Below, one piece after another: positions 1 through 13,650 of a stretch of 54,810 nucleotides of DNA; position 1 is the stretch's first letter; each line of letters opens with the position of its first letter. Source of the DNA: a virus (lineage: Duplodnaviria > Caudoviricetes); the IMG/VR virus record IMGVR_UViG_3300045119_000359, positions 1-54,810 of that record; one strand, 5' to 3'. The position numbers were made by a program, and so were the translations under genes. Under the pieces are notes generated by a model that saw only the letters and a program-made list of their open reading frames with translations, was not told where the DNA came from and ran no database searches.

Positions 1-192
1 CCGGGCGAAGCGGCCAGATGCGCGGCACTTCGCGGCGCGAGGACAATGTGTTCTGGATCGTCTCTATTGATGACATCAGGAAAGACTCGGACGAGAGCGG
101 GGCGCAGTTCACCACCAGATTCACGAAGCAGAGCCGCAACACGCCGGACGAGATTCCCGATTACGAATGGCATTTTGAGCCGGACAAGCTGA
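1..192. repeat. Terminal direct repeat (copy 1) of a circularly permuted contig
   Basis: 1-192 is identical to 54619-54810 except T65/C54683 (synonymous Ser TCT/TCC). It lies inside a CDS, so the circular length is 54618 bp. Confidence 0.97.
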
Positions 193-401
193 CCGGCCTG
201 ATTACGGTCACCCATAAGATGGCGCACTCACTGACGGTCTTCCGGTCGGTGATCGAGTCCGGCGTGACCAAGCCCAGCGAGATCGCCAAGGTGATGAGAG
301 TCGAGGACTATCAGGTCTCCAGAATGGCGCACAAAGCCATAGGTCAGGGATGGCTGGAAAGGGTCAATAGAGGGGAGTATGCACTCATTGAAGGTAAATA
401 G
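1..401 (+). CDS. C-terminal part of primase-helicase (continues from 53130 across the circular junction)
   Basis: In frame with the 53130 ORF through the repeat. GRSGQMRGTSRRED is a RecA-like helicase motif, followed by a C-terminal HTH-like segment. Confidence 0.9.
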   Translation, partial: GRSGQMRGTSRREDNVFWIVSIDDIRKDSDESGAQFTTRFTKQSRNTPDEIPDYEWHFEPDKLTGLITVTHKMAHSLTVFRSVIESGVTKPSEIAKVMRVEDYQVSRMAHKAIGQGWLERVNRGEYALIEGK

Positions 402-402
402 T

Positions 403-591
403 TCTTGCACACTCTTGCAAACCGTCTTGCAGACTCTTGCACTTGCAACGTCTATATGTGTTGCAACTGCAAGAACTACCCTTTTTCCGGAGAACGAGTG
501 TTGATTATGAGACACTTACATTCCTGCAACACTCTTGCAGCCATGAATGCTCTTGCAAGAGTTTTTCGGCCAGTTCTTGCAGTGTCTTGCA
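403..591. repeat. Iteron-like TCTTGCA cluster, putative replication origin
   Basis: TCTTGCA at 403, 413, 425, 435, 533, 551, 575 and 585, plus inverted and partial copies, flanking a more AT-rich core just downstream of the primase-helicase gene. Confidence 0.65.
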
Positions 592-603
592 GTATCTCTA
601 GCC

Positions 604-1812
604 ATGATACCTGATTTTCGCATCCTTGTCGGTGACGCACTGGAAAAGCTGCGAGACCTCCCGCCGAAAAGCGTTCAAATGGTGGTGACCTCACCGCCAT
701 ACTACGGCCTGCGGGACTACGGCGATCCACGGCAGCTCGGATCAGAAAATTCCCCCGGGGAATACATCGAACGGATGGTCGCTATCAGCCGCGAGATCCA
801 CCGAGTCCTCCGCGACGACGGCACCTACTGGCTCAACCTCGGGGACAGCTACTACAACTACCGACCCGGGGTTGGACAGGCTCTGGTGAAGCAGACCGTT
901 GCCTCAAATGGACAAGACCTGCCCCAAGAATGTCCACGGCGGGCGAACGTTCTGGAAGGGTTCAAGGAAAAAGACCGGATGATGATTCCGGCGCGGGCCG
1001 CCATTGCGTTACAGGCCGATGGCTGGTATCTGCGGGACGAGATCGTGTGGCACAAGCCCAACCCGATGCCGGAGAGTTGCACCGATCGCACCACCAAATG
1101 CCATGAATTCATCTACCTGCTGACCAAGCAGGAGCAGTATTTCTACGATGGTTACGCCATCAAAGAACCGTACCTCGCGCCCATGAACCGATGGGGCGGC
1201 CAGAAGCTGAAGGCCGATGGGGAATCCATGTGGGACGAAGGCACCGGGCAGGCGACGTACCGCGACCGGGACATGCGGCCAGATCCGGCGGGACGTAACA
1301 AACGTTCCGTTTGGACGGTCAACACATCACCTTACCCTGATGCCCACTTCGCCACCTATCCCCCGGAGCTGATTACTCCGTGCATTCTGGCGGGGACATC
1401 CCAGATGGGCTGCTGTTCAAAATGTGGAGCACCGTGGGAGAGAGTGGTGGAAAAGGGAGAACCAGACCTTGAGCATCAGCTCGCCTGTGGCTCAAACATG
1501 ACTGGAGAGTACAGTGGCAGGGCCACCAAGTCATACGCCGAGGGCGGAGCGCAAGACCCGAGCGCGGTGAAGGCGAGAATTCTGGAAGGGATGCGGGAGA
1601 GCTTCACTGTCGGGTGGGAGCCGGGCTGCAAGGATTCCTGCCTTGGTGACGTCATTCCCTGCACGGTTCTAGATCCTTTTGGCGGGCGCGGGACAACCGC
1701 TGAAGTTGCCATCCAGCTTGGCAGGAGCTGTATCCTGATTGAGCTGAATCCCAAATACGCAAAGCTGTGCGAGCGCAGTGCCCATACTACCCCGGGGCTT
1801 AACCTGTTATGA
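604..1812 (+). CDS. Beta-class N4-cytosine/N6-adenine DNA methyltransferase with Cys-rich insertion
   Basis: TSPPYYGLRDYG (motif IV), RVLRDDGTYWLNLGDSY, HFATYPPELITPCI, VLDPFGGRGTT (motif I). Start placed at ATG 604 because the upstream extension is iteron DNA. Confidence 0.93.
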   Translation: MIPDFRILVGDALEKLRDLPPKSVQMVVTSPPYYGLRDYGDPRQLGSENSPGEYIERMVAISREIHRVLRDDGTYWLNLGDSYYNYRPGVGQALVKQTVASNGQDLPQECPRRANVLEGFKEKDRMMIPARAAIALQADGWYLRDEIVWHKPNPMPESCTDRTTKCHEFIYLLTKQEQYFYDGYAIKEPYLAPMNRWGGQKLKADGESMWDEGTGQATYRDRDMRPDPAGRNKRSVWTVNTSPYPDAHFATYPPELITPCILAGTSQMGCCSKCGAPWERVVEKGEPDLEHQLACGSNMTGEYSGRATKSYAEGGAQDPSAVKARILEGMRESFTVGWEPGCKDSCLGDVIPCTVLDPFGGRGTTAEVAIQLGRSCILIELNPKYAKLCERSAHTTPGLNLL

Positions 1813-2054
1813 ATTTTGAATTGAGACAAAAGAAGTACGAGGCACTGGTGGAACGTTACTACGGTAAACTCGACCTGCTGGCTGCATGGCAGGAACATCC
1901 CAATCCGCCGGTCAATTACATCAGAGACCTGAAAAAAAGGCTGAGAACCCATAAAAATGATCTTGTGTATCGGGGAGTGATAGCTCCTAATGGCGAAGAA
2001 TTTTTGGAGGAAGGTAAACTAACAAAGGAAGGAAATAACAACCATGTTGTTTGA
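1809..2054 (+). CDS. Hypothetical protein
   Basis: ATGA overlap with the methyltransferase stop; 81 aa. Confidence 0.65.
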   Translation: MNFELRQKKYEALVERYYGKLDLLAAWQEHPNPPVNYIRDLKKRLRTHKNDLVYRGVIAPNGEEFLEEGKLTKEGNNNHVV

Positions 2055-2244
2055 AGTAGCTATCTTGGAAAAACCAACCAAGAAAGAAGTAGAGGAAGAA
2101 GGTAAGACAGAGAAACTGGTGTTCGGCCCCAAGGCCGTAGTCGCCAATGACCCACAGAGCGCGGCCATTTCTGCCGTGCTCGACGGAGAGAAGATCGAAG
2201 TGGATCGCGCCCGCATGACGGTGCTTGTGCGCCCTTTTGCGTAG
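2044..2244 (+). CDS. Small phage protein ending in a -1 slippery site
   Basis: AAGGAAGG upstream; 66 aa ending LVRPFA. Confidence 0.8.
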   Translation: MLFEVAILEKPTKKEVEEEGKTEKLVFGPKAVVANDPQSAAISAVLDGEKIEVDRARMTVLVRPFA

Positions 2245-2326
2245 AGCCGGTGCCAAGGCCAGCGGGGAATAAAACACCATGGGACGACCCAGTTGCCCGA
2301 GTCTCTCCCATTCCCCGTGGCATCGG
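2232..2326 (+). other. Putative -1 programmed ribosomal frameshift signal (C CCU UUU plus stem-loop)
   Basis: Heptamer 2232-2238 in correct phase; stems 2247-2255/2318-2326 and 2263-2270/2310-2317; the -1 frame stays open to 2453. Confidence 0.7.
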
Positions 2327-2453
2327 TGAGGATGATTGGCGTGTAAAATTCGGAGTCGCAGGCCCACTGGGGCCGCATGGTGCATCCTACATGATGGCCT
2401 CTGCTCCGGCAGGTGGACAGACCTACACCGCAGCAAACCTGGGAGTAAAATAA

Positions 2454-2933
2454 ATGCCGCTTCTCAACTACACCACGGAGGTAAGTGCCGAGCGATCGGT
2501 AGCGGAGATTCAGTCCAAGCTGGCCAAGGCCGGTGCATGGCAGATTCTCCATGAATACCAGCGCGGCACCGGAGAGTTGATCGGGCTGTCGTTTCAGATC
2601 GACACTCAGTTTGGCCCAATGGCGTTTCGCCTGCCTGCCAACATCGACGCGGTGGAGAAAGTCCTTATCCGGCAACGGGTACGTCGTCGGCCTGACCTCA
2701 AAGCCCGGGGTCAGGCCACTCGGGTAGCGTGGCGCATCCTCAAAGACTGGGTGGAAGCCCAGCTCGCCCTCATTGAAACCGAGCAGGTTAAAATGGAGCA
2801 GGTCTTTTTCGCCTTCGTGCAGGACAGCAAGGGACGGACACTCTACGAGGCGTATGAGGAGAAAAAGTTTGCTGGACTGTTGATGCCCGGCGAACGCAAA
2901 GTGGTTCACATGGAGGAATCGAAATGCTCGTAA
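2454..2933 (+). CDS. Conserved-looking phage hypothetical protein
   Basis: GGAG RBS; 159 aa; RVAWRILKDWVEAQLALIE motif. Confidence 0.8.
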   Translation: MPLLNYTTEVSAERSVAEIQSKLAKAGAWQILHEYQRGTGELIGLSFQIDTQFGPMAFRLPANIDAVEKVLIRQRVRRRPDLKARGQATRVAWRILKDWVEAQLALIETEQVKMEQVFFAFVQDSKGRTLYEAYEEKKFAGLLMPGERKVVHMEESKCS

Positions 2934-4636
2934 TCTACCCATTCAGCGTCGTTGACCAGGATCAGGCGCTCAAAAACGCGCTCTGGATCAAGGAACTCGG
3001 AGGAAGCGAGGCGCATGACATATTCATGCTGTCTGACAGGAGATGCGACCCGGAGATCTGTCGGCAGATCAGGGAAGCGTTCAAGGGCACATTCAAGCTT
3101 TTGCAGCACCGCATGACCAAGAACGACATTGATGGATGGCCGCAGGGCGCAAACCAGTTGTTCTGCTACTCCACCTGCCTCATCCAGAACGAGCGAGGAT
3201 GGCCGTATTTTCTCTGGCTTGAACCGGATGCCATTCCCATCCGCCCGGGTTGGCTGGACTCGCTGGAGGCAGAATACCGGCTCAAAGGCAAGCCGTTTAT
3301 GGGAGAGCGCGTTGACCTTGGAGAGAAAAGGCCGGACGTCCCGGTGCACATGAGCGGGGTCGCCATTTACCAGAACCCGATTTACCTGCTGGCCGGTGAA
3401 GCGTACCGCGCCCATGAAGTGGCCTGGGACATCGCCGCCAAAGACCAGATCCTGCCCAACGCGCACTTCACGAAACAGATTCAGCATTATTGGAAACACG
3501 GCACGTTCACCGACCTGAGCGGCATCAGGCCGGAAACCGTGATTTTTCATTCATCGAAGGACGGAAGTTTGATTGACTTGCTCCGCTCGCAACGCAATGG
3601 TGTGTCGCGGGATGGAGCAGCGGTAGCTCGCCACGCTCATAACGTGGAGGCCGTGGGTTCGATTCCCACTCCCGCGACCATCAAAAAACTCCCCCACGGT
3701 GTTTGGGTCATTGAAGGTGACACCATTATCAGCAAGCAGGTAGAAGACAGTGGACGCCTTGATTTTGATCTCCTCATTCCTCACATCCTCCAACACATCA
3801 GACCCGGTGATACCGTGGTTGATGTTGGTGCTTTTATTGGGGATCATACTATTGCGTATTCTCACGCGGTAGGGAAAGACGGCAAGGTCATTGCCTACGA
3901 ACCCAGCCTGTCTGCCTTCCACTGCCTTGTGCATAATGTGGAACGATGCGGAAATGTCTTTACCTTTAATCACGCCCTTGGCGCATCACCAGATGTGGTC
4001 AGAATGACCACTTCTGCCAACGCCGCCAGCAATTACATCGGCGGAGTTGAGGGCGATAACATCATTGTCCGGCCACTGGACGAGGACATCTCCATCTTTG
4101 AGCGGCTGGACTTAATCAAGATCGACACCGAAGGCTACGAGCTGAAAGTCCTCAAGGGAGCGGAGAAACTCATCGAGAAATTCCATCCCAAACTGGTGGT
4201 CGAGATAAATGAGATCGCCTTGAACCGGCAGCACGTTACTCCGGAGGACGTCATTGCTTGGATCGTGCGGAAGGGCTACCAGGTCAGCATCCTTCACCGA
4301 CATGGCCCTGACGTTCCCTTTTATGACATTTTGGCAGTCGCCAATCGGCCACCGGAGATTTCAAGTGACGTCGGGATTGCCCATACTGACGAATCGCCCG
4401 CCGTCGCGCCTCCGGTGGCTGCCCATCGGCATCCCACCATCAAGGAAGAAATCGCATGGCACGTTGAAGTGCTGAGAGCATTTTGTGAACACGACCCTCA
4501 AACAAAAGCTGCGGTCATGCAGAAGCTGGTGTATTCTGGTCTTAGACAACCTAACAAGAAAAAGAATGCCACTTCAAAAACTCATAAACAAACCAACGGG
4601 AAACGTAGGGCCGCTGCTGAAGAACGCCAAACCTGA
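2924..4636 (+). CDS. Fusion of glycosyltransferase-like domain and FkbM-family SAM methyltransferase
   Basis: N-terminal FLWLEPDAIP...HMSGVAIY...IFHSSKDGSL (GT-A-like); VVDVGAFIGDHT, VIAYEP and LIKIDTEGYELKVLKGA (FkbM). Confidence 0.85.
   Translation: MLVIYPFSVVDQDQALKNALWIKELGGSEAHDIFMLSDRRCDPEICRQIREAFKGTFKLLQHRMTKNDIDGWPQGANQLFCYSTCLIQNERGWPYFLWLEPDAIPIRPGWLDSLEAEYRLKGKPFMGERVDLGEKRPDVPVHMSGVAIYQNPIYLLAGEAYRAHEVAWDIAAKDQILPNAHFTKQIQHYWKHGTFTDLSGIRPETVIFHSSKDGSLIDLLRSQRNGVSRDGAAVARHAHNVEAVGSIPTPATIKKLPHGVWVIEGDTIISKQVEDSGRLDFDLLIPHILQHIRPGDTVVDVGAFIGDHTIAYSHAVGKDGKVIAYEPSLSAFHCLVHNVERCGNVFTFNHALGASPDVVRMTTSANAASNYIGGVEGDNIIVRPLDEDISIFERLDLIKIDTEGYELKVLKGAEKLIEKFHPKLVVEINEIALNRQHVTPEDVIAWIVRKGYQVSILHRHGPDVPFYDILAVANRPPEISSDVGIAHTDESPAVAPPVAAHRHPTIKEEIAWHVEVLRAFCEHDPQTKAAVMQKLVYSGLRQPNKKKNATSKTHKQTNGKRRAAAEERQT
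3606..3680 (+). tRNA. tRNA with CAT anticodon (Met, or Ile2), encoded CCA, located inside a CDS
   Basis: Acceptor CGCGGGA/TCCCGCG, D stem GAGC/GCTC, anticodon stem CCACG/CGTGG with loop CTCATAA, T stem GTGGG/CCCAC with loop TTCGATT, 3' ACCA. Confidence 0.92.
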
Positions 4637-4659
4637 CGGCACCTGGGATTACCGACCTG

Positions 4660-5298
4660 TTAAGCGCCGCCCTTCACGACAACCTTTGCCGACCCCGGGG
4701 GATCGACGGTCACGGTCAGCACCGGAATAGACACATCGCCAGTGGAAGGCGGTGGCGTGTAGGCCGGAGGAGTGTCCTCGATGTGAACCCCTGAGATCTT
4801 GCTGGCAATGGCCTGACAGATTGTTTCAAAGTTGCGGTCGTACAGCTCGGCATCAGCCGTGCTGTCCACGAAGCAGACTTCGATCAGAATAGCCGGTTCA
4901 TCCGTGTTGTTCAGGAAGTAAAGGTCGTCCCTTTCCTTGGGGCCGCGGTTCAGGAAGCCACCGGAATGCGAGATCGCTGCGGCCACTTCCGACGCAAGGT
5001 CTTCCTGTGACACGAACAGGCACTCTGTTCCCATGGGTTTGGTTGTGGTTTGGTAGGCGTTAAAATGAACGGACACATCAAGGTCGCGTTCCTCGCCGTT
5101 GTGGAAGGCCACAATCCGTTCCAGGTTCTCGCTTTGCCCGGTGGAGACGTCATCATGGAACACTTCCGTCTTTACGCCTGCTCCGGCGAGCATCTCCGCC
5201 ACCCTGTTGACCACTTTTCGTGCTTCATCCACTTCATCGAGGTATCCGCTTGCTCCCCGGATGAGTTTCCCGTGACCGCTGCTTATTACTATTTTCAT
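4660..5298 (-). CDS. N-acetylmuramoyl-L-alanine amidase (Amidase_3) endolysin
   Basis: ISSGHG, DEVDE, VSVHFNA, AILIEVCFVDS zinc-amidase motifs. Confidence 0.93.
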   Translation of the reverse strand: MKIVISSGHGKLIRGASGYLDEVDEARKVVNRVAEMLAGAGVKTEVFHDDVSTGQSENLERIVAFHNGEERDLDVSVHFNAYQTTTKPMGTECLFVSQEDLASEVAAAISHSGGFLNRGPKERDDLYFLNNTDEPAILIEVCFVDSTADAELYDRNFETICQAIASKISGVHIEDTPPAYTPPPSTGDVSIPVLTVTVDPPGSAKVVVKGGA

Positions 5299-5302
5299 AT
5301 TT

Positions 5303-6886
5303 TTATCCCGAAGTATAGACCGGCCTGTGCCCTTTTCCACGCTGCCCTTTTGGAGTAACGGTCGGCTGGTAGTAGTGCGTCCCGAGCATGGCGGGAATCA
5401 TCACCAGTACAGCTTTCCCGAATGACCGAAGGACTTTCTCGTTGAAATCCGCGGGAACCCCGGTGTCCTGCGACATCTCCTCGGCAAATTTATGGATGCC
5501 TTCCTCGGTGAAGATGGGGCCAAGTTCCGCTGTGACAAATTCCAGCCAGTGCGCTGTGTCAGCCGGTGCCTTTCCGAACGGTGCGGGAACATCAGTCCCA
5601 CCGAAACCGTAGCCTTTCATCAACGTGCCTACGAAGTTGATGAATGGATGAACCTTGCCCAGAGCGTAGTTTCCGAAGATGGTAGGAGCCTGTTTCGGGT
5701 GCATGCCCATTCTTATCAGAGTACGGATCATCGACGTCTCTCCGCCGGTCGGGTTCAGGATGCTGCCATCCGGCCCTTTGGCACTTCCCCAGTCCGGGGA
5801 ATCAAAATCACCAAGGTTGATCTTCTCATCGCTCCCGAAGAAATGCGTGAGCAGCAACTGGTTCAGCATCAGGAGCGAAGTTCCTGTCAGGGCTATGCGA
5901 ATCCATTGCCGTGTGTTGTAACCGGCCATGTAACGCGCTTCAGGGCTGGCGTCCCTCCACAGTTTCTGGAGCTGGTCTCCAACCACGGGCACCTTGTTCA
6001 GATTGTGCCGCGCCAGCGTGGTCATTGACTGCCCCAGGTCAACCGGACGCATCACGCGCCCCACATCAAGAGATGGCGCAAAGGAAACACCCCGGGCGAA
6101 TTCACCGAATTTTCCGGACAACGCCAGTGCCGCGCTGGGGCCGGGGGCACCTGTCATGTGGGCGACATTTACGGAAATTCTCTTGCGCAACTCATCCGTT
6201 CTCAGGTGCTCGGGCGCACCATCCCATGCGGCGTCCCAGGCCATGCTCCGGAGTTCCTTCAGGCCAAGGAAACTGTTTGAAAGCATCCTGCCGAGTTTGC
6301 CGAAGAACCCGCTGCGGTGCTGGATGTCGTCATAGATCTTGCGGGGATCAATGGGAAGGCCGCTTGTTACTTTCTCATCGAACCGTGGATCGAGCATGAT
6401 ACTCTGCGCAATCTGTCGGGCGTTGGATTCGCTCATGGAACGCCATGAATCAGCCCAGGTTTTTCCGTAGGCTTTCCACATCATCGGGTCGAAGGCATAC
6501 GGCCATGCGTGTGTTCCGTGCAACGCAGCCTGGTGCCCGACCACCTTCAGGGAATAGGGAGCCTGATAGAAACCCCGGAAGAACCTGTTGAGCGGCGATC
6601 GCTCCGTCCCTTCCACGAACGTACGCGCCTGCCGGAGCATCTGCGCCCTGTTCCTGTCGGCCAGCAGCAGGTTCTTGGTGCGGAGCCTCACCGATTTGGG
6701 AGTCGCCAGCAGGCGTGCCACCTCCTCCGGCACCATGCGGATGCCCTTCTGGGCGTAAATGTCGTCAGACAGCCTGTGCGTCAGCTCCTTGAAGTCCGGG
6801 TAACCGTAGCGACCGGGCTGCTTCAGATAGCGTTCCTTGGCGTAATCCCAAAGCTCCTTAGCCTCCTTGATGGTATAACAGGCCAT
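5303..6886 (-). CDS. Putative internal virion/ejection protein with hydrophobic segments
   Basis: TAATG-coupled to the giant ORF; hydrophobic helix IALTGTSLLMLNQLLL; position at the end of the ejectosome block. Confidence 0.7.
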   Translation of the reverse strand: MACYTIKEAKELWDYAKERYLKQPGRYGYPDFKELTHRLSDDIYAQKGIRMVPEEVARLLATPKSVRLRTKNLLLADRNRAQMLRQARTFVEGTERSPLNRFFRGFYQAPYSLKVVGHQAALHGTHAWPYAFDPMMWKAYGKTWADSWRSMSESNARQIAQSIMLDPRFDEKVTSGLPIDPRKIYDDIQHRSGFFGKLGRMLSNSFLGLKELRSMAWDAAWDGAPEHLRTDELRKRISVNVAHMTGAPGPSAALALSGKFGEFARGVSFAPSLDVGRVMRPVDLGQSMTTLARHNLNKVPVVGDQLQKLWRDASPEARYMAGYNTRQWIRIALTGTSLLMLNQLLLTHFFGSDEKINLGDFDSPDWGSAKGPDGSILNPTGGETSMIRTLIRMGMHPKQAPTIFGNYALGKVHPFINFVGTLMKGYGFGGTDVPAPFGKAPADTAHWLEFVTAELGPIFTEEGIHKFAEEMSQDTGVPADFNEKVLRSFGKAVLVMIPAMLGTHYYQPTVTPKGQRGKGHRPVYTSG

Positions 6887-9800
6887 TAGCCGCAGACCTC
6901 CCTTAGTTTGGTGACCCAATCCAGCGTTGCTGGCCCTTCACGGTCAGTCCTGATGCGCTTAAATTCGTTGTCCATGGTATTGTAAACGTCAGCATTGGAC
7001 TTCATGTAGTCAGTCTGGGTCTCTTTTGTCTTCTGAGCAATCCTGCGGGCTGCGCCTTCCTCGGTCACCATGGGATCCCTGCCGCGAATCTCCCTGAACC
7101 GCCGCATTAGCCCGGTGTAGGATGTGGCGGATGCCGGATCTAGCGGCGCGTAGCCATTGAGCACCGGCAGCGTCTCCCTGGCCACTGCATCCATTGGCCG
7201 GTAGGCATTGGAAAATTTCTCCTCGACATTCAATGCTTCGTTGAACCTTTTCAGGAGACCTTCATCCTTCGGGTGCTTGGTCAGCGCGTCACCAACCTGA
7301 TTGGTAATCGACTGGAGATCGTTCAGGTGCGCCCGGGCTATTCCCATGGACGAAGTGGTGACCTTTCCGGTTCTCTGGAAATCCCTGACCACCTGATTGG
7401 GATCACCGCCTTTGGCCAGCCAGTCCTTCCCCTTGGTCAGAGCTTCATCCCATCCAATGGGTTCCCGGGGTTTCTGGTCTTCTACTGTCCGAACGGGTTC
7501 TTCATCGTGCCCGTAATGCCGGGCGGCTTCGGCAGCTCCGGTAGCTGCGTCTTCGTTGCTGGCGGTGCCTTCAAGGATGTCACCGAGGGATCCAGCCTGC
7601 TGATCTGTCTCTCCAGCTCGTTCAGCGCCGGTTGGTCTTTGTCTTTGAAACCTGACATCTCCCTGTGCATAGAACGAAGATACACGCTTGCGAGGAACTT
7701 CTGTTTCGTCGGGTCGTTCGGGGCCAAGGGCCGCACTAGACTTAAAGCTCTCGGCACGATTTTTCGTATTGTAATCCTGGAGTCTTTCATTGATCTGGTT
7801 GAAGGTATCCCAATGTTCAGCATAGATGTTTCTGAGGGCTTGTAAAAACTTTTCCTGTGGCACGCCCTTGGCTACCCTTCGCGCCTCGTTAGTCCCTTCC
7901 TCCGTGGTAAACGGCTCACCCTCGGTGCGTTTGGCAACATGGGTGATTTCGTGGTTGAACAGGTAAAAGGTTTCCGCTGCTGCTGCCTCTGGGCTGGTTC
8001 TGGCATAATGCGACAGAGCACCGGGGTTGACCCAGATGGCCTTGAAAGGACTGACCGTGTTGAGACCACGATAGCTCTTGTCGTAGGAAACACCGCCGAA
8101 CCATCCGGTGTGATCGGTCTTGGCGAGGTCAGCGTATTTCTCGCCAACCGCCTTCCCGAATTCCCGCATGTACTTGATGAGCGCGTTCCCGATCTTGGTT
8201 TCAAACTCCGCCGCCCCGGGTATGTCATCGAACTTGGCGTCGGTGTTATTGTGCAGATACGGCTTGGTAGGATCGAGGTGGCTTACGTCCAGCTTGGTCT
8301 TTTCAAAATCGACTTCCCTTTCCGGCTTGAAAGAAGGCTTGATGTACTGCTCAGGCGTGGTCTCGGTTGATTCACCGCCGGTGTAATGCGTTACGATCCT
8401 GTCCTTGCCAATATCTACGCTGGTCACCTTCCTTGGAGTGTATGGCGCGATCTCCCGCTGGGATTTGGCGGCGGCATTGATCCTGTCCACCTGCTCTTTA
8501 GTCAGGCTCTTGGTAGGATCAATGTCAGGAAGCTGCTTGATGGTCTTGAACACATCCTGTGCCTCAAGTAACTGCTGCTCGACAGCCTGGTTCTTGAAGT
8601 ACTGGTACATGGAATCCACATCTTTCTTGATGGTGGATCGGAATCCCTCCCGCTGGTTGTTAAAGGGATAAGCCGGGTTGTCGCCTCTTACATTGGGCCT
8701 GACGTCCAGCGCGAAATTGTAGGGGATCTTGGCCTCCCCGTAGCCGTAAACATCATTGCCATAAATGTCGAACTGATGCAGCCCGGCTGAAAGGACGTTG
8801 AACTTCGGGTAGTCGGTCTTGAATTTCGGATCGACGTAAACGTTGATCTTACCCCATGAGAAATTGAAGGTGTTATCCTTCTGCCAGTCCTTCTGGTGAA
8901 CCCCGAGAGGAAGCGTTTCCCCGTTCTTAACCACCTCGACAGGTGCCAGCAGTGGCTTGTCCAGAAAGGCCGGGTACTTGTGAAAATCAATGGCATGCGT
9001 TTCGCCATTGTTGTCAATGTAGCTCTTGGGTATCTTCACGGTGACCGTTGTGCCGTTAGGCTCATTGGTCTGTTCCTTCAGGATTTTAATAGTGGCCTTC
9101 GATCCTTCCTCAAGTGTCTGGGCTATCTCGTCGCTGCTGACATCTACGGTGGATTTCAGTTTGTCTTTGACTGTTTCCAGTCTGATTCGCTCCGACCCGA
9201 GCTGGAATGCCATCTTTGCCGCGCCCAGGCCGCCGGAGGTGTTTTCCGGAGAGCCAGTCTTTTTGGTTCCACCGATCGTGAAGAACGCCTTGCGCACTGT
9301 CTCCGGGGTCATGCCGATTCCGGTGTCCTTTACGGTGATCGTCCTTTTGTCGGCATCGTAATCTATGTGGATTGTCTTGGGATTTTTCGCCGTCGAACCG
9401 GCTTCACGCGAAGCATCGAGGGCGTTTTGCAGCAGCTCCTTGGTGGTCACCTCCAGTATCGGCTTTTCGTACATCGACTTTCCGAGTAGCTGGACGATCT
9501 GCCTCTTGTTCATCCCCATCTGGATTTGATCTTCACCACTGGAGGAATGAATGAGCGTGCTCCCCTTGTCGGCAGCCGCCGCAAGATCCATGTCGAGTTG
9601 CTCCGGAGACTTCTCATACCCCGGGGCAGAGGATTTCATTGGAAGCTCAGATCCCGGGAGGTCAGGCCCGAACTCGCCCTCATGGGTGAGTGCCACCAGA
9701 TCGGGATGCATCGGCCAGTTCTGCCACCGTGCCAGTTCAGCCTTCAACTGTTCGATCTTCCTTTGAACCGCCACCGGGTCTTTGACATCCACTCCCAGAC

Positions 9801-12800
9801 GCGCTGCCAGCTTTGGGTTTCTGGCCGCGCCCTGTACCGCGGAAATCTGCTGCCGAAGGCCGCGCTGGATCTTCATGGCGCGAGCTGCCTGCTTCTCCAT
9901 CTGTCGCATGGCGGCGTCATCGAACCTGAACAGGTCTCCTGTCTCTGGATGCTCGGCGGCGCGACCCAGTGCCGCCTTCACCAGATTGGCTGCGAAATTG
10001 GCGGGCTTCCCTTCAAGGGATGACCTGATTCCTACCTGCTGCGCACCGGGGTTGCTCGGCGCTGCCTCCGCTATCTCCTGAGCCGCACTGTCGGTAATCC
10101 TGCCCGACTGGTGTAGCGCAAAAAGGTCTTCGCTGCCGTCTCGCGCAATTTGGAATCCGGCTTGGCCTTTTGCTCTCGCCAGAAGTCCTCTGGATTCGGC
10201 ATCTGCTTGGCTGAGTTCCGAGTGTTTGAAGTAGTTTGCATAATCTCCTACGCTCCCTTTCTCGTCTCTGATGTTTAGCTCGGCGTCAAGCCGCGCTGCT
10301 GCTGTCGCATCGAATCCATCAGACTCACGATGGATCTGCGATGGAATAGTGTCCTCTCCAGTTCGACGCGCCAGATCGAAGCGATGACGACCGGAAATCA
10401 GCTCCAGGTCGCCATTGTTACGCTGCCAGAGTTGAACCGGTGCTGTGCCTGTGCGCTCATATTTTCCGGCCAGCGGCTCAACAACTCCGCGCTCATTTGC
10501 ACCGGCCTTGAACTGCGGGACGTCTTTGGACAGGGTGATATTGTCCAGCGGGATCTCCATGGTAGGCTTGCCGGTAACCTGCGTGGTGGTTTCCGGAGGA
10601 GGACGCCGCGTTGGTGGCAATGGCAGCGGAAATACATCGCCACCAGCTTGCTGCTGTTGCTGCTGTTGTGGCTGCGCAAGCGCGTGAAGCGCGTTCTTAG
10701 GGACTTTAGGCGGCGGTTCCGGTGGAGGAAGCTCTCTCGTCTTTTCTGCGCTCGTTTTCGACGTCACTCTGGAGGTAGGCACGCTCCTCGTCGGAGATGG
10801 GATACTCGGGCCACCAGTTGAGGTCGTCGATGGCTCCGATTCCGGAGTTTGTGTCGATGTCGTCTCCGCTGGTTTCTCGGTTTCCGGAGTTACCGTCTGG
10901 GCCGGTGTTTCGTCCGTCCATCCCTTGAGTCGCTTCAGCTCCAAATCCGCTGCTTCGATCTCCTGCTTGCTCGCCTTCCATTCAGGCAGTTTACCAGTCC
11001 TCCGTGCTTTTACAATATCGGATACAGCACTCGCGGCGATGTCCGTGGCGTCACCTTCCGCCTTGTCAATCCGGCGCGGCTTCTTCTCCCCAGGAAGGGC
11101 TTCCCTGATGTCTCCGCCAACATAAACGCCCGGCATACTGGTCTTCAGGCTGGCATCCTGTGGAATTACCGGCCCCGGGATTGGGTTACCCTTTCGGTCG
11201 AAAGTCGGTCTTCTGGCAATTCCTTCCGGCATCCATCCGGTGTTCAGGCCAGTGGACAGGAAGTTTTCCAGATGCGCCACAGGAATGTCCACCACTTCTC
11301 CGGTAAGTTTCGATTTCCCATTGGCATCTGTTACTCTTTTCGCCACCTGCACAGTAACTCCACCAGTGGATGGATCTGGTGTTATTTTCTTGACCTCACC
11401 CTGCACAAACTCAACCCGGCCTTGTTTCTCGTAGGCTCTGAGCCTTTCCATTTGATCCGCGCTTGTCTCAGGGCCGAATGGACTTCGGGACAATGCGACG
11501 ACCTTTTTGGTTCCTTCCCGAAGTGCTCCAATGATTGCCTGAGTAGCACTGTTACCTGCGCCATTGGTCATCCCCACCTTTCCAGTAGAAAGGCGACTAA
11601 ACCGTTCGGCGTTTCCCCATCCGGAATGCTCAAATCCTGGTAGTTCTACTATCTTTGATCCGGTCAGGATGCCTACCCGCATGGCAGGTATTACTCCGTG
11701 GTGTTTTGTAATGATGTCCACTCCGCCGTCTGGTCGTGGCTTCAGATTAACCACCTCAACTCCTGTGCGAATCTCTGCTCCTCGATTTCGGGCTGTCAGG
11801 TAACGTGGACGAAAATAATCCCTGCCGGTAGTCCCTTCACCGGATGCCCCGGTGTTGATAATCTCCAGTGACCTCTTGGATTGGCCTCCGGTGCTTGTTT
11901 CCCTCTCCACTACAACAGTGTCAACGCCCTCGTAGGCAGCTTGAGCGGCAGCTTTTAATCCGCCTGCTCCTCCACCGATGATAACAAATTCCCGGGGCTT
12001 TCCTGATTCGTTGCGAATCTTATGTATGGCATCCCATGTGTTCCATAGGTCGGTCAGCACGCGGTCGTGCTCTATCGCAATGGTGCGCCGGTCTTCGCGT
12101 GCCTGTCGGGATTCACCCACCGGCTTCTTTTGTTTCAGGATATTGCCTGCCTGATTTCTCAGGTCGGCTGTCCGGGCCAGAAGCTCAGTAAGCCTTGGAT
12201 CATCCGATACCTGCTGGCCGGGTACGGCTGCGTCTGCCTTTCTTTTCGCCAGTTCCTGCGTGTATGCCATCCCTACAGGCGGCGCATTGGGATCGGCGTT
12301 CTGTGACTTGATGTACTCCTCAAGTTGAGGAGTGGTCATCTTGACTGGATCGGTTGTTACCGGCAGTCCACCAGGTTCCTGTTCCGGCTCAGTGGGTGTT
12401 TTAACAACCTCCTTCGCTGCCGCTGCCGCGTTCTGGAGAAAGTCGGAATCCAGCGTTGCTTTACTGGCAGTGGCCTCCTCGATCGTGTCAGTCAGATCTC
12501 CTACAGTGGCCGTGGGATTTCGTTCATCCACGACGGCGTATTGCTCGCCTCGTTTCTCGATGACGAACGGAGTCTCTCCCAGTGGCGACCCCTTGCCGTA
12601 TCCACCGGTTGCCGCGTACATCTCCTCGGCTCTCTTTACTTCTCCAGCCCGGGATGACTCAGGTGACGGCTCTAGTTCGGGCGGCGGTTCTTCACCGGAA
12701 ATGATTTTCCTGAGATGGGCTATCTCGTCCACCCTCTCCTGAATTTTCTCCTTTGGTATTCCATCTATTTTCGACAGAATGTTAATCTCGTTCTGTGCTT

Positions 12801-13650
12801 CCCCGATACGCCGCTGGAAACCCTCCATTTGATTTGGAGCTATCTGGACTGGCGGCTTGTCGATCGGCATGGCTTCAGTGCCCGGAGCTGGTATCGGTGC
12901 ACCGGGTAGTGGCTGTTCAACTCTTGCCGTTTCGGACACCACGCCGGGTGGAGAAAACTGCTCGGGCTTAAACGCTCCTGGCACTGGCGGGATTGCCGCG
13001 CCGGGTCGCGGCACTGCTCTTACGCCCGCAGGAAGAAACGGTTTCGCCATGGTGATCCCCATGATTGCATTGGCTACATCGCCTCCTACTGTCTCGACCT
13101 GCTCTGCAAGAGGCTTCTGACCAAAATTCTCGTAGCGGTAAGCCTCTGGATACATCTCCCTGTTGACCTGTTCCATCGGCTCGCCCTGAGCCAGTTTGTT
13201 TATGGCCTGACCGCTTTTGATAACTTCCTCGACTCCACCAACGACCGGGGTGGCAAACTCCGCCGCTCCACGCCATGATGTCGGCACAAAACCTGCCAGC
13301 ACCCTTCTCATGCCTTCGGCCACCTGATTTGCTTCCGGAGTGTTACGCCATAGATACTTGCCGGGATCTTGGGAAAACGGAGTTTCGGTTGTTCCGTAGA
13401 GCGACCGCGCCCTCTGGTTTACTTGAGCAAGGTATCCGGCTGCGCTGCCAAGTGCCTGATCCGTGGCTGGCTGGCTTGGAGGCGGTGTGGACGACTGAGC
13501 CGGAGCGGGTGTGCTTACCAGCTTTCCCCCAAGATCCGATAAATCAGAACCACCGCCACCGGGCGAAGGTGTGTTTACCGGAGTAGCTCCAAGATCGGAT
13601 AGATCAAGGGACGATGACGAGTCCTGGGTCACGTTGCTTGGCTTGGTCAA
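6886..13650 (-). CDS. Giant polyvalent virion protein: TrxB-like flavoprotein, ParB-like, GHKL ATPase and HExxH domains
   Basis: VIIGGGAGG/VVVERE/GAGNSA/TSMPGVYVGGDIR; LISGRHRFDLARR; KELLQNALDA/DTGIGMT/GGLGAAK/GTTV; NHEITH. The start codon is uncertain. Confidence 0.85.
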   Translation of the reverse strand: MTKPSNVTQDSSSSLDLSDLGATPVNTPSPGGGGSDLSDLGGKLVSTPAPAQSSTPPPSQPATDQALGSAAGYLAQVNQRARSLYGTTETPFSQDPGKYLWRNTPEANQVAEGMRRVLAGFVPTSWRGAAEFATPVVGGVEEVIKSGQAINKLAQGEPMEQVNREMYPEAYRYENFGQKPLAEQVETVGGDVANAIMGITMAKPFLPAGVRAVPRPGAAIPPVPGAFKPEQFSPPGVVSETARVEQPLPGAPIPAPGTEAMPIDKPPVQIAPNQMEGFQRRIGEAQNEINILSKIDGIPKEKIQERVDEIAHLRKIISGEEPPPELEPSPESSRAGEVKRAEEMYAATGGYGKGSPLGETPFVIEKRGEQYAVVDERNPTATVGDLTDTIEEATASKATLDSDFLQNAAAAAKEVVKTPTEPEQEPGGLPVTTDPVKMTTPQLEEYIKSQNADPNAPPVGMAYTQELAKRKADAAVPGQQVSDDPRLTELLARTADLRNQAGNILKQKKPVGESRQAREDRRTIAIEHDRVLTDLWNTWDAIHKIRNESGKPREFVIIGGGAGGLKAAAQAAYEGVDTVVVERETSTGGQSKRSLEIINTGASGEGTTGRDYFRPRYLTARNRGAEIRTGVEVVNLKPRPDGGVDIITKHHGVIPAMRVGILTGSKIVELPGFEHSGWGNAERFSRLSTGKVGMTNGAGNSATQAIIGALREGTKKVVALSRSPFGPETSADQMERLRAYEKQGRVEFVQGEVKKITPDPSTGGVTVQVAKRVTDANGKSKLTGEVVDIPVAHLENFLSTGLNTGWMPEGIARRPTFDRKGNPIPGPVIPQDASLKTSMPGVYVGGDIREALPGEKKPRRIDKAEGDATDIAASAVSDIVKARRTGKLPEWKASKQEIEAADLELKRLKGWTDETPAQTVTPETEKPAETTSTQTPESEPSTTSTGGPSIPSPTRSVPTSRVTSKTSAEKTRELPPPEPPPKVPKNALHALAQPQQQQQQQAGGDVFPLPLPPTRRPPPETTTQVTGKPTMEIPLDNITLSKDVPQFKAGANERGVVEPLAGKYERTGTAPVQLWQRNNGDLELISGRHRFDLARRTGEDTIPSQIHRESDGFDATAAARLDAELNIRDEKGSVGDYANYFKHSELSQADAESRGLLARAKGQAGFQIARDGSEDLFALHQSGRITDSAAQEIAEAAPSNPGAQQVGIRSSLEGKPANFAANLVKAALGRAAEHPETGDLFRFDDAAMRQMEKQAARAMKIQRGLRQQISAVQGAARNPKLAARLGVDVKDPVAVQRKIEQLKAELARWQNWPMHPDLVALTHEGEFGPDLPGSELPMKSSAPGYEKSPEQLDMDLAAAADKGSTLIHSSSGEDQIQMGMNKRQIVQLLGKSMYEKPILEVTTKELLQNALDASREAGSTAKNPKTIHIDYDADKRTITVKDTGIGMTPETVRKAFFTIGGTKKTGSPENTSGGLGAAKMAFQLGSERIRLETVKDKLKSTVDVSSDEIAQTLEEGSKATIKILKEQTNEPNGTTVTVKIPKSYIDNNGETHAIDFHKYPAFLDKPLLAPVEVVKNGETLPLGVHQKDWQKDNTFNFSWGKINVYVDPKFKTDYPKFNVLSAGLHQFDIYGNDVYGYGEAKIPYNFALDVRPNVRGDNPAYPFNNQREGFRSTIKKDVDSMYQYFKNQAVEQQLLEAQDVFKTIKQLPDIDPTKSLTKEQVDRINAAAKSQREIAPYTPRKVTSVDIGKDRIVTHYTGGESTETTPEQYIKPSFKPEREVDFEKTKLDVSHLDPTKPYLHNNTDAKFDDIPGAAEFETKIGNALIKYMREFGKAVGEKYADLAKTDHTGWFGGVSYDKSYRGLNTVSPFKAIWVNPGALSHYARTSPEAAAAETFYLFNHEITHVAKRTEGEPFTTEEGTNEARRVAKGVPQEKFLQALRNIYAEHWDTFNQINERLQDYNTKNRAESFKSSAALGPERPDETEVPRKRVSSFYAQGDVRFQRQRPTGAERAGETDQQAGSLGDILEGTASNEDAATGAAEAARHYGHDEEPVRTVEDQKPREPIGWDEALTKGKDWLAKGGDPNQVVRDFQRTGKVTTSSMGIARAHLNDLQSITNQVGDALTKHPKDEGLLKRFNEALNVEEKFSNAYRPMDAVARETLPVLNGYAPLDPASATSYTGLMRRFREIRGRDPMVTEEGAARRIAQKTKETQTDYMKSNADVYNTMDNEFKRIRTDREGPATLDWVTKLREVCG

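Follow-up and report, generated by a model that had tools for sequence, protein, structure and literature searches.

A tRNA gene inside the reading frame of a two-domain enzyme

The subject of this analysis is a tRNA(CAT) gene that lies inside a protein-coding open reading frame (ORF), P0001, on the plus strand of the IMG/VR virus record IMGVR_UViG_3300045119_000359. The whole record, 54,810 bases with a completeness of 100% as estimated by CheckV, is referred to as the window. An earlier note on this DNA, made from the letters of the sequence, had described a perfectly intact tRNA as the in-frame linker between two enzyme domains and had proposed dual coding as the explanation. The locus is laid out as follows, with lengths given in amino acids (aa) and nucleotides (nt).

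2924..4636, plus strand: ORF P0001, 570 aa, consisting of a GT-A-like domain, a tRNA-encoded linker, an FkbM domain and a basic C-terminal tail
2924..3601, plus strand: N-terminal domain, aa 1-226, GT-A glycosyltransferase-like according to AlphaFold2 and Foldseek; no Pfam family matches it
3590..3605, plus strand: short spacer QRNGV-, between the ...SKDGSLIDLLR end of the N-terminal domain and tRNA position 1
3606..3680, plus strand: tRNA(CAT), 75 nt, a cloverleaf with encoded CCA, corresponding to residues 228-253 in the open frame
3638..3640, plus strand: anticodon CAT, the codon of His239 of ORF 2924-4636
3680..3682, plus strand: ATC, the codon of Ile253, whose A is the last base of the CCA
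3821..4285, plus strand: FkbM methyltransferase domain, PF05050, aa 300-454, found with Pfam

ARAGORN made a single call in the whole window, a tRNA-Met(cat) at 3606-3680 on the plus strand, which is the place where the earlier note had put an intact tRNA. The Rfam tRNA model RF00005 matched 3606-3677 over model positions 1-71 of 71 with 69.2 bits (gathering score 29, E 5.6e-15). Both the minimum free energy fold and the centroid fold of the 75 nt were cloverleaves with stems of 7, 4, 5 and 5 bp, and all 21 stem pairs were Watson-Crick. The 7-nt anticodon loop, CTCATAA, carries U33, the T-loop is TTCGATT, and the 3' end is ACCA with the CCA encoded. The fold energy of the 75 nt alone was unremarkable (z -1.93; 9 of 200 shuffles folded equally well), and the call as a tRNA is made because of the covariance-model score rather than the fold energy. 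Two further Rfam matches, one to Plastid-ycf2 on the reverse strand (39 bits against a threshold of 65.7) and one to Tymo_tRNA-like (16.6 bits against a threshold of 40), were set aside as the same tRNA seen through other models. No second tRNA fragment was found in the window in a search allowing up to 3 mismatches, and the tRNA is single-copy.

Bacterial initiator tRNA(fMet) is marked by an unpaired 1-72 position, by three consecutive G-C pairs at 29-41, 30-40 and 31-39, and by A11-U24. The tRNA at 3606-3680 keeps A11-U24 within a D stem of GAGC/GCTC, has a Watson-Crick C1-G72 pair, and shows A-U, C-G and G-C at the three positions of the anticodon stem, the stem as a whole being C-G, C-G, A-U, C-G, G-C. 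The earlier description of a non-standard initiator is borne out by these features. The body of the tRNA appears initiator-like, yet a role in elongation rather than initiation is predicted, given the C1-G72 pair and an anticodon stem that lacks the three G-C pairs. Identity to annotated phage tRNA-Met/fMet genes was 80-88%; in E. coli genomes only two tRNA-Met genes were matched, at 79% identity, which gave no help in typing. Charging with Met, or with Ile after lysidine modification, both remain candidates.

Two of the three plus-strand frames of the tRNA are closed, by TAG at nt 19 and by TAA at nt 35. The ORF uses the third and runs unbroken from 2924 to 4636, with the translation ...SRDGAAVARHAHNVEAVGSIPTPATI... 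through the tRNA, as had been claimed; the spacer in front of it is shared with the homologue P0007 (AQRNGEV). The identities given earlier to the two flanks also stood. AlphaFold2 modelled the N-terminal 226 aa with a predicted local distance difference test score (pLDDT) of 95.7 and a predicted template modelling score (pTM) of 0.92, and nearly all of the Foldseek matches listed for this domain were nucleotide-sugar GT-A glycosyltransferases (best E 1.5e-07, TMq 0.4-0.62). Within the domain, E100-P101-D102 is invariant in 30 homologues and may be a candidate for the metal-binding DxD motif. The Pfam FkbM family PF05050 matched aa 300-454 over profile positions 1-173 of 173 with 72 bits (cut-off 22.7, E 8.7e-20), and the top Foldseek match of the full-length model was the FkbM structure 2py6. 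Residues 226-250 of that model, with pLDDT <50, form the sole long low-confidence stretch between the domains, and the 25 residues encoded by the tRNA are predicted to be a disordered linker.

One way to read this arrangement is as two genes, with a functionally intergenic tRNA, an FkbM protein translated separately (for example from ATC 3680 or after processing) and an open frame that is incidental. Stand-alone FkbM homologues start exactly at the tRNA end, their Met1 (MKILPNG...) aligning with ATC 3680 (IKKLPHG...), and the gene call of one relative, P0259 (603 aa, in the 90% cluster of P0039), starts with L right after the tRNA peptide, although this start may stem from a pipeline that masks tRNAs and trims coding sequences (CDSs), or from a contig end. 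However, no in-frame ATG, GTG or TTG was found between the tRNA and the S-adenosylmethionine (SAM)-binding motif of FkbM; the in-frame GTGs after 3602 lie only within the tRNA (3644, 3653) or the SAM motif (3815). No Shine-Dalgarno-like sequence precedes 3680, and a mere 2 nt separate the GGAGG (3646-3650) from GTG 3653. The proteins are two- or three-domain in 91 of the 110 rows of the N-domain tree described below, with the N-domain continuing into a downstream domain in the same ORF, and length changes at the site are multiples of three. I consider separate genes quite improbable.

The frame through the tRNA was compared with controls, which were 26 other IMG/VR contigs with a tRNA-Met of similar 3' half. 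The stop-to-stop frame in the same phase was 12-101 aa in 26 of 26 control contigs, compared with 592 aa in the window. This tRNA type is often open by itself; the window stands out in having coding sequence, in phase, on either side of it.

Other ORFs also read into tRNAs of this type. The unrelated P0122 (316 aa, terminase small subunit PF03592) carries a same-phase tRNA-like peptide, GGAAVARGTHYPEAVGSIPTPA, near its N-terminus, and P0257, an unrelated ORF of 71 aa that was found when shorter proteins were searched, reads a similar tRNA at its end, QDGAAVARHAHNVEAVGSTPTPATK.

The tRNA-derived peptide recurs at the same linker and is the best-conserved block

About 28 full-length homologues of P0001 were found at 44-78% identity, together with many three-domain relatives of ~800-900 aa. 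Searching with the linker alone recovered the tRNA-derived peptide in the two-domain P0007 and in the three-domain P0039, P0038, and P0036, so that four other gene clusters, from other sources and assemblies, carry it at the same linker position. P0258 and P0261, further members of two of the 90% clusters (P0038/P0258 and P0039/P0261), have it as well. The linker peptide of P0007 (559 aa) is RDGAAVARLAHNQEAVGSIPTPA, and in P0039, P0038, and P0036 the tRNA peptide directly follows the ...SKDGSLIDLLR of the N-domain. A fusion found once and nowhere else, which the earlier note had named as the outcome that would sink its proposal, is thus not what the homologous loci show.

Cloverleaf feasibility was scored by back-translation of the peptides into the cloverleaf of the window, with third codon positions free. 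All 21 pairs were allowed in the window, P0007, and P0039, and 20 of 21 in P0036 and P0038, while control 25-mers taken from other linkers of the family (n=400) allowed 13.4 ± 2.0 pairs and shuffled peptides (n=300) 14.2 ± 1.7 pairs, with a maximum of 19 in either set. The sole change of paired residues in the anticodon stem among the relatives, His/Val to Leu/Gln, fits CAC/GTG to CTG/CAG, a double compensatory change at 29-41 and 30-40, and residue pairs of this kind are also seen in the intergenic tRNAs of the control contigs. Conservation in these proteins is highest in the tRNA block, ahead of the enzyme domains: P0007 and P0039 are 55% identical in the N-domain and 40% in FkbM while their tRNA blocks agree at 21 of 21 positions, and P0001 and P0038, with 54% and 36% identity in the enzyme domains, agree at 16 of 17 positions in the 3' block of the tRNA. 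As far as can be judged from the sequences, an intact tRNA and a continuous two-domain ORF are encoded by the same DNA in several lineages.

This conservation bears on the idea of an exapted relic, in which a tRNA that was once perhaps intergenic was swallowed when GT and FkbM were fused and now serves as a linker only, no longer matured. The N-domain and FkbM also exist as stand-alone proteins, with the tRNA lying exactly at their boundary; the linker tolerates almost any sequence, relatives manage without the tRNA, and the D-arm of P0036 and P0038 is imperfect. Yet the other linkers of the family are hypervariable while the tRNA block is the most conserved part between proteins that are 40-55% identical. 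In the window no stem pair of the 21 and no loop signature is lost, the amino-acid changes that are seen preserve pairing, and a tRNA score of 69 bits is not expected of a neutral linker. A relic is hard to square with this pattern of conservation, and I regard it as unlikely.

Near-identical DNA is present in soil metagenome runs, in small shares in runs X5-X13, and contigs of runs X2 and X3 were compared with the window at the linker; the joints were read from contigs only, at a likeness threshold of 85, the X3 pieces themselves being 95-99% alike. In run X3 (record 11), an independent 346-nt contig differs from the window at one letter over 3577-3677 and rejoins it at 3683. After the discriminator base (3677-3683), 86 letters replace 5 in this contig, a net gain of 81 letters or 27 codons, in frame. 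P0007 is one codon shorter at the site, the codon that completes the CCA being gone, and in both cases the change in length keeps the frame. The absence of a stop, which the earlier note had wished to see confirmed in reads, is backed at the level of contigs.

The same contigs speak to a possible assembly artefact, a chimera formed where a tRNA sequence is repeated. The window was assembled from a metagenome, and near-identical short contigs of run X2 break near the linker, ending at 3498 and resuming at 3821 with the linker uncovered. The artefact was rejected because the same arrangement is present in independent assemblies (P0007, P0036, P0038/P0258, and P0039/P0261) and because the X3 contig bridges from 3577 through the tRNA to the FkbM part, both flanks belonging to one conserved gene; I find it barely credible.

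Among metagenome contigs, the matches listed for an IUPAC tRNA pattern were three unrelated low-GC phage tRNA clusters (L016-L018), and a stricter tRNA pattern had no match among viral contigs. A search for related loci gave none with a single protein as query and 11 viral loci with alignment A1, none of which had a tRNA. In 185,579 species genomes neither a relative of the gene nor the tRNA's combination of D-arm and anticodon loop was found.

The last of these results also bears on an attP-like site, in which the phage would retain a host tRNA copy so as to integrate at the tRNA-Met gene of its host. attP sites often keep mainly the 3' part of a tRNA, and P0036 and P0038 keep mainly the 3' two-thirds of it at the peptide level. 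However, neither PF00589 (tyrosine integrase) nor PF00239 (serine recombinase) was found in a six-frame search of the record, and Pfam and PHROGs scans of the ORFs were also without an integrase. Apart from the empty search of the species genomes, the full 5' half of the tRNA is present and paired in the window, which has no second tRNA fragment. The attP reading was rejected because the window has no integrase, and it seems very improbable.

The tRNA is one of several alternative linkers

What the earlier note had overlooked is that the tRNA is one of several alternative linker cassettes and is absent from most relatives. A motif search over a family set of 113 proteins with the ...SKDGSL motif found 5 with the tRNA peptide and 24 with ...NSVxTEPTSGxPSREEIGT..., the rest having other linkers. 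A FastTree tree of the N-domains was built with 110 rows, leaving out 3 proteins with the motif outside positions 180-230, and has many weak forks. The 5 tRNA rows need 5 changes on this tree, at least 3 of which are forced by well-supported branches alone, and the nearest kin of each tRNA row bear other linkers; recombination inside the gene could give the same tree pattern as mobility. In run X2, a relative that is ~82% identical upstream (record 5) has 269 other letters in place of 233 (3519-3751), including the tRNA, and therefore alternative linkers co-occur in soil samples that also hold this phage. The tRNA at the linker is probably a swappable cassette.

A second cassette and the common alternative at this site, the REEIG element (peptide ...TEPTSGxPSREEIGT...), is found in 23 of the 110 tree rows and in both two-domain and three-domain forms. 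It was located at the following places.

L008:3668-3760: REEIG element
L005:1140-1235: REEIG element
L009:3671-3763: REEIG element
L028, L029, and L025 (the same as L027): further occurrences of the core of the REEIG element

The DNA core of the element in L005, L008, and L009 is GAACCGACGAS-loop-STCGCGYGAAGAAATCGG, within a 9-11-bp inverted repeat, and there are compensatory changes in both the bracket and the inner hairpin. Two unrelated phage ORFs (L028, L029) also contain the core in frame, and in L025 it stands amid stops in all frames. Rfam gave no match to the element at E up to 1, its fold z-scores were mixed (-2.89, -1.89, -0.72, and -0.23, with six distinct sequences only), and no core beyond chance was found in the window. 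I treat the REEIG element as a lead that would favour a slot for structured elements, short of a finding.

Other linkers of the family were noted in passing. In P0141 (567 aa) the linker peptide GGVAKLADASDLKSDGPQARDGSNPSTA, which follows ...HASKDGSLIARLRE, resembles a class II tRNA in frame: its S-D-L-K-S-D back-translates to a self-complementary 5-bp stem with a 7-nt loop and the anticodon TAA or TGA, and its GSNP to the T-loop GGTTCGAATCC. Going by the peptide only, this insert may be a Leu/Ser-like tRNA of class II. Recurrent linker peptides with T-loop-like ends (AGSSPVQA, AGSTPVAA, AGSNPAP) occur in P0035, P0037, P0053, and P0069, in P0068 and P0083, and in P0147, and these may be other tRNA-like inserts at the same site. 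A third unrelated linker, of the P0018 type (L006/L007:3670-3795), has an 8-bp inverted repeat, TTGAGCGG...CCGCTCAG. The motifs ...FPAVPVLAE...GGEAREST...DSRGG... recur in the linkers of many three-domain relatives (among them P0030, P0038, P0052, P0064, P0096, P0101, and P0061), shrunk to FPAVPNGDSRGG in P0061, and ...KEPDKPGSPSP... is also seen among three-domain relatives; these may be further cassettes or plain Pro/Ser-rich linkers.

The patchy distribution is what an account based on a mobile in-frame cassette would start from. In it the linker would be a tolerant landing site at which hairpin-bracketed elements spread and swap by recombination, in the manner of Rickettsia palindromic elements; the tRNA would then be present chiefly through the spread of the element, and not for any need of the phage for a tRNA or linker of this form. 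It is favoured by the number of changes that the tRNA rows need and by their nearest kin having other linkers, by the 269 letters that replace 3519-3751 in the X2 relative, by the presence of REEIG in two- and three-domain forms, in the unrelated ORFs L028 and L029 and in L025, and by the inverted repeats with compensatory changes that bracket this element; in-frame palindromic insertions are also known in Rickettsia, according to the part of PMC10969869 that was available. On the other side, the window has a single tRNA copy with no second fragment, matches to the REEIG core in it do not exceed chance, a search that was not exhaustive showed neither a transposase nor a homing endonuclease adjoining the tRNA, and the many weak forks of the tree, together with intragenic recombination, could mimic mobility. 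The insertion resembles MITEs (miniature transposable elements with inverted repeats) and Rickettsia elements in being in frame and patchy among homologues, but it does not share their multiple genome copies. The mobile cassette overlaps with the reading preferred here, a tRNA gene whose bases are selected for two uses, and differs from it in what selection maintains. I regard it as a serious possibility, to be held tentatively.

A bolder and rather doubtful proposal is that the linker acts as a frame-preserving slot for exchangeable RNA-gene cassettes (tRNA-Met, probably other tRNAs, and an undescribed hairpin RNA of 45-95 nt), which would be matured at the expense of the mRNA that hosts them and would couple the output of RNA and enzyme. 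If this were true, the slot would represent a new class of RNA genes inside protein genes.

Proposed mechanism and points against it

The reading that I lean towards, as moderately probable, is that the gene for a GT-A/FkbM glycan-modifying enzyme carries a phage tRNA(CAU) gene, in frame, within its disordered linker, and that the 75 bases of the tRNA are selected for two uses. The gene would be transcribed within the plus-strand block 1-4636. Transcripts traversed by ribosomes would give the whole 63-kDa enzyme, in which the translated tRNA would be a neutral, disordered linker of 25 residues. On transcripts folded into the cloverleaf, ribonuclease (RNase) P would cut the 5' end and 3' processing enzymes the 3' end, and release of the tRNA would destroy that copy of the mRNA. 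The tRNA and the enzyme would hence be drawn from one transcript pool, in competition. The dual coding proposed in the earlier note is strengthened by the recurrence at the same linker, the cloverleaf-compatible residues, the conservation of the block, and an FkbM part without a start of its own; the excision by RNase P/E, the mutual exclusivity of the two products, and the suggested decoy function are carried over as conjecture. That the tRNA at 3606-3680 replaces a host tRNA lost to anticodon nucleases is pure speculation.

A number of observations weigh against selection for two uses. P0002, at 78% identity the nearest of the full-length homologues, differs by an unrelated linker, and no tRNA was found anywhere in the five related records G001-G005 (those behind L008, L009, L007, L005, and L011; 36-56 kb, 4 of 5 at least 90% complete); the tRNA is dispensable for the phage group. 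Because it is patchy on the N-domain tree and absent from these five records, the tRNA appears to be an accessory cassette rather than something fixed in the lineage. Only 3 of 4 D-arm pairs are allowed in P0036 and P0038, and since this arm cannot fully pair, some copies of the tRNA may be decaying. The covariation among relatives is deduced at the peptide level with third codon positions free, and the conservation of the tRNA block could come from recent horizontal spread instead of long purifying selection. A scan of 2300-4800 found no promoter-like (sigma-70-like) site and a single terminator-like site, which was on the minus strand and below the shuffle expectation; because no such promoter or terminator marks the tRNA, its expression would hang wholly on read-through transcription. 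Lastly, excision would come at a real cost, since the 5' fragment would lack a stop codon and the 3' fragment a start codon.

Relation to known systems

Polycistronic transcripts of tRNA and mRNA that are cut by RNase P and RNase E are known from bacterial tRNA-tufB operons and from the tRNA clusters of phage T4. As in these, the tRNA of the window would come from a transcript that also codes for protein and would need endonucleolytic release from the mRNA. In those systems the tRNA lies between cistrons, whereas here it lies inside one ORF and is translated, so that release must destroy the message. In the tRNA punctuation of mitochondria, tRNAs in long transcripts mark processing sites, and overlaps between tRNA and CDS are short. 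The window likewise places a tRNA structure in a long transcript beside coding sequence, but mitochondrial tRNAs stand between ORFs, each with a start and a stop of its own, while the tRNA of the window is wholly internal to one ORF. Its sequence and D-arm are similar to those of ordinary phage tRNA-Met genes (in the 26 IMG/VR contigs and in the Mesyanzhinovviridae Xoo-sp2 and vB_Sm_QDWS359), and its CAT anticodon loop and T-arm are the same. These ordinary genes are intergenic, one such place being behind the gene for the large terminase, and their same-phase frame is short, unlike that of the window.

Rickettsia palindromic elements are small palindromic insertions that lie in frame within ORFs, as described in the available part of PMC10969869. 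Within the scope of that part, the tRNA is like them and like intragenic MITEs in being in frame, translated, tolerated in the protein, and patchy among homologues; the Rickettsia elements differ in being multi-copy and without RNA-gene function, whereas the window has a single-copy, canonical phage tRNA gene. PMC10264068, of which a portion was likewise available, states there that phage tRNAs have been proposed to stand in for host tRNAs that anticodon nucleases have cleaved, that initiator-type Met tRNA is a reported target of VapC-type nucleases, and that phages generally avoid encoding tRNA-fMet. Like the phage tRNAs treated in that portion, the tRNA of the window is a lone tRNA with an altered anticodon arm and belongs to a species targeted by VapC; unlike them, it is known without a defence system, host, or cleavage, and tRNAs inside ORFs lie outside the available text of that paper. 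A full-text literature search, with subscription journals outside its reach, turned up no account of a tRNA lying in frame within a phage ORF.

The case is best filed as a variation on overlapping genes and tRNA-mRNA co-processing. Annotation rules take an overlap between tRNA and CDS as an error and split or trim such genes, and cases of this kind are systematically hidden as a result. An RNA gene and a protein gene on the same strand could, it appears, share bases under selection for both, because more than one phage lineage has the in-frame tRNA and the changes between them keep the cloverleaf. The locus would also offer a natural system for the long-standing question of how translation and processing by RNase P compete on one transcript, and the alternative structured cassettes at one linker suggest an unrecognised route by which phages carry and exchange small RNA genes.

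Other genes in the window

The window also encodes an amidase endolysin, tail-fibre and head proteins, a DNA methylase, and a primase/helicase, most of its ORFs being without a family, and the record looks like a tailed phage of a peptidoglycan-bearing host. A 2254-aa ORF at 6886-13650 on the minus strand, an unusual giant protein adjoining lysis and structural genes, has weak PHROG matches to the ribonucleotide reductase large subunit (aa 553-875) and to RIIA-like proteins (aa 1365-1545).

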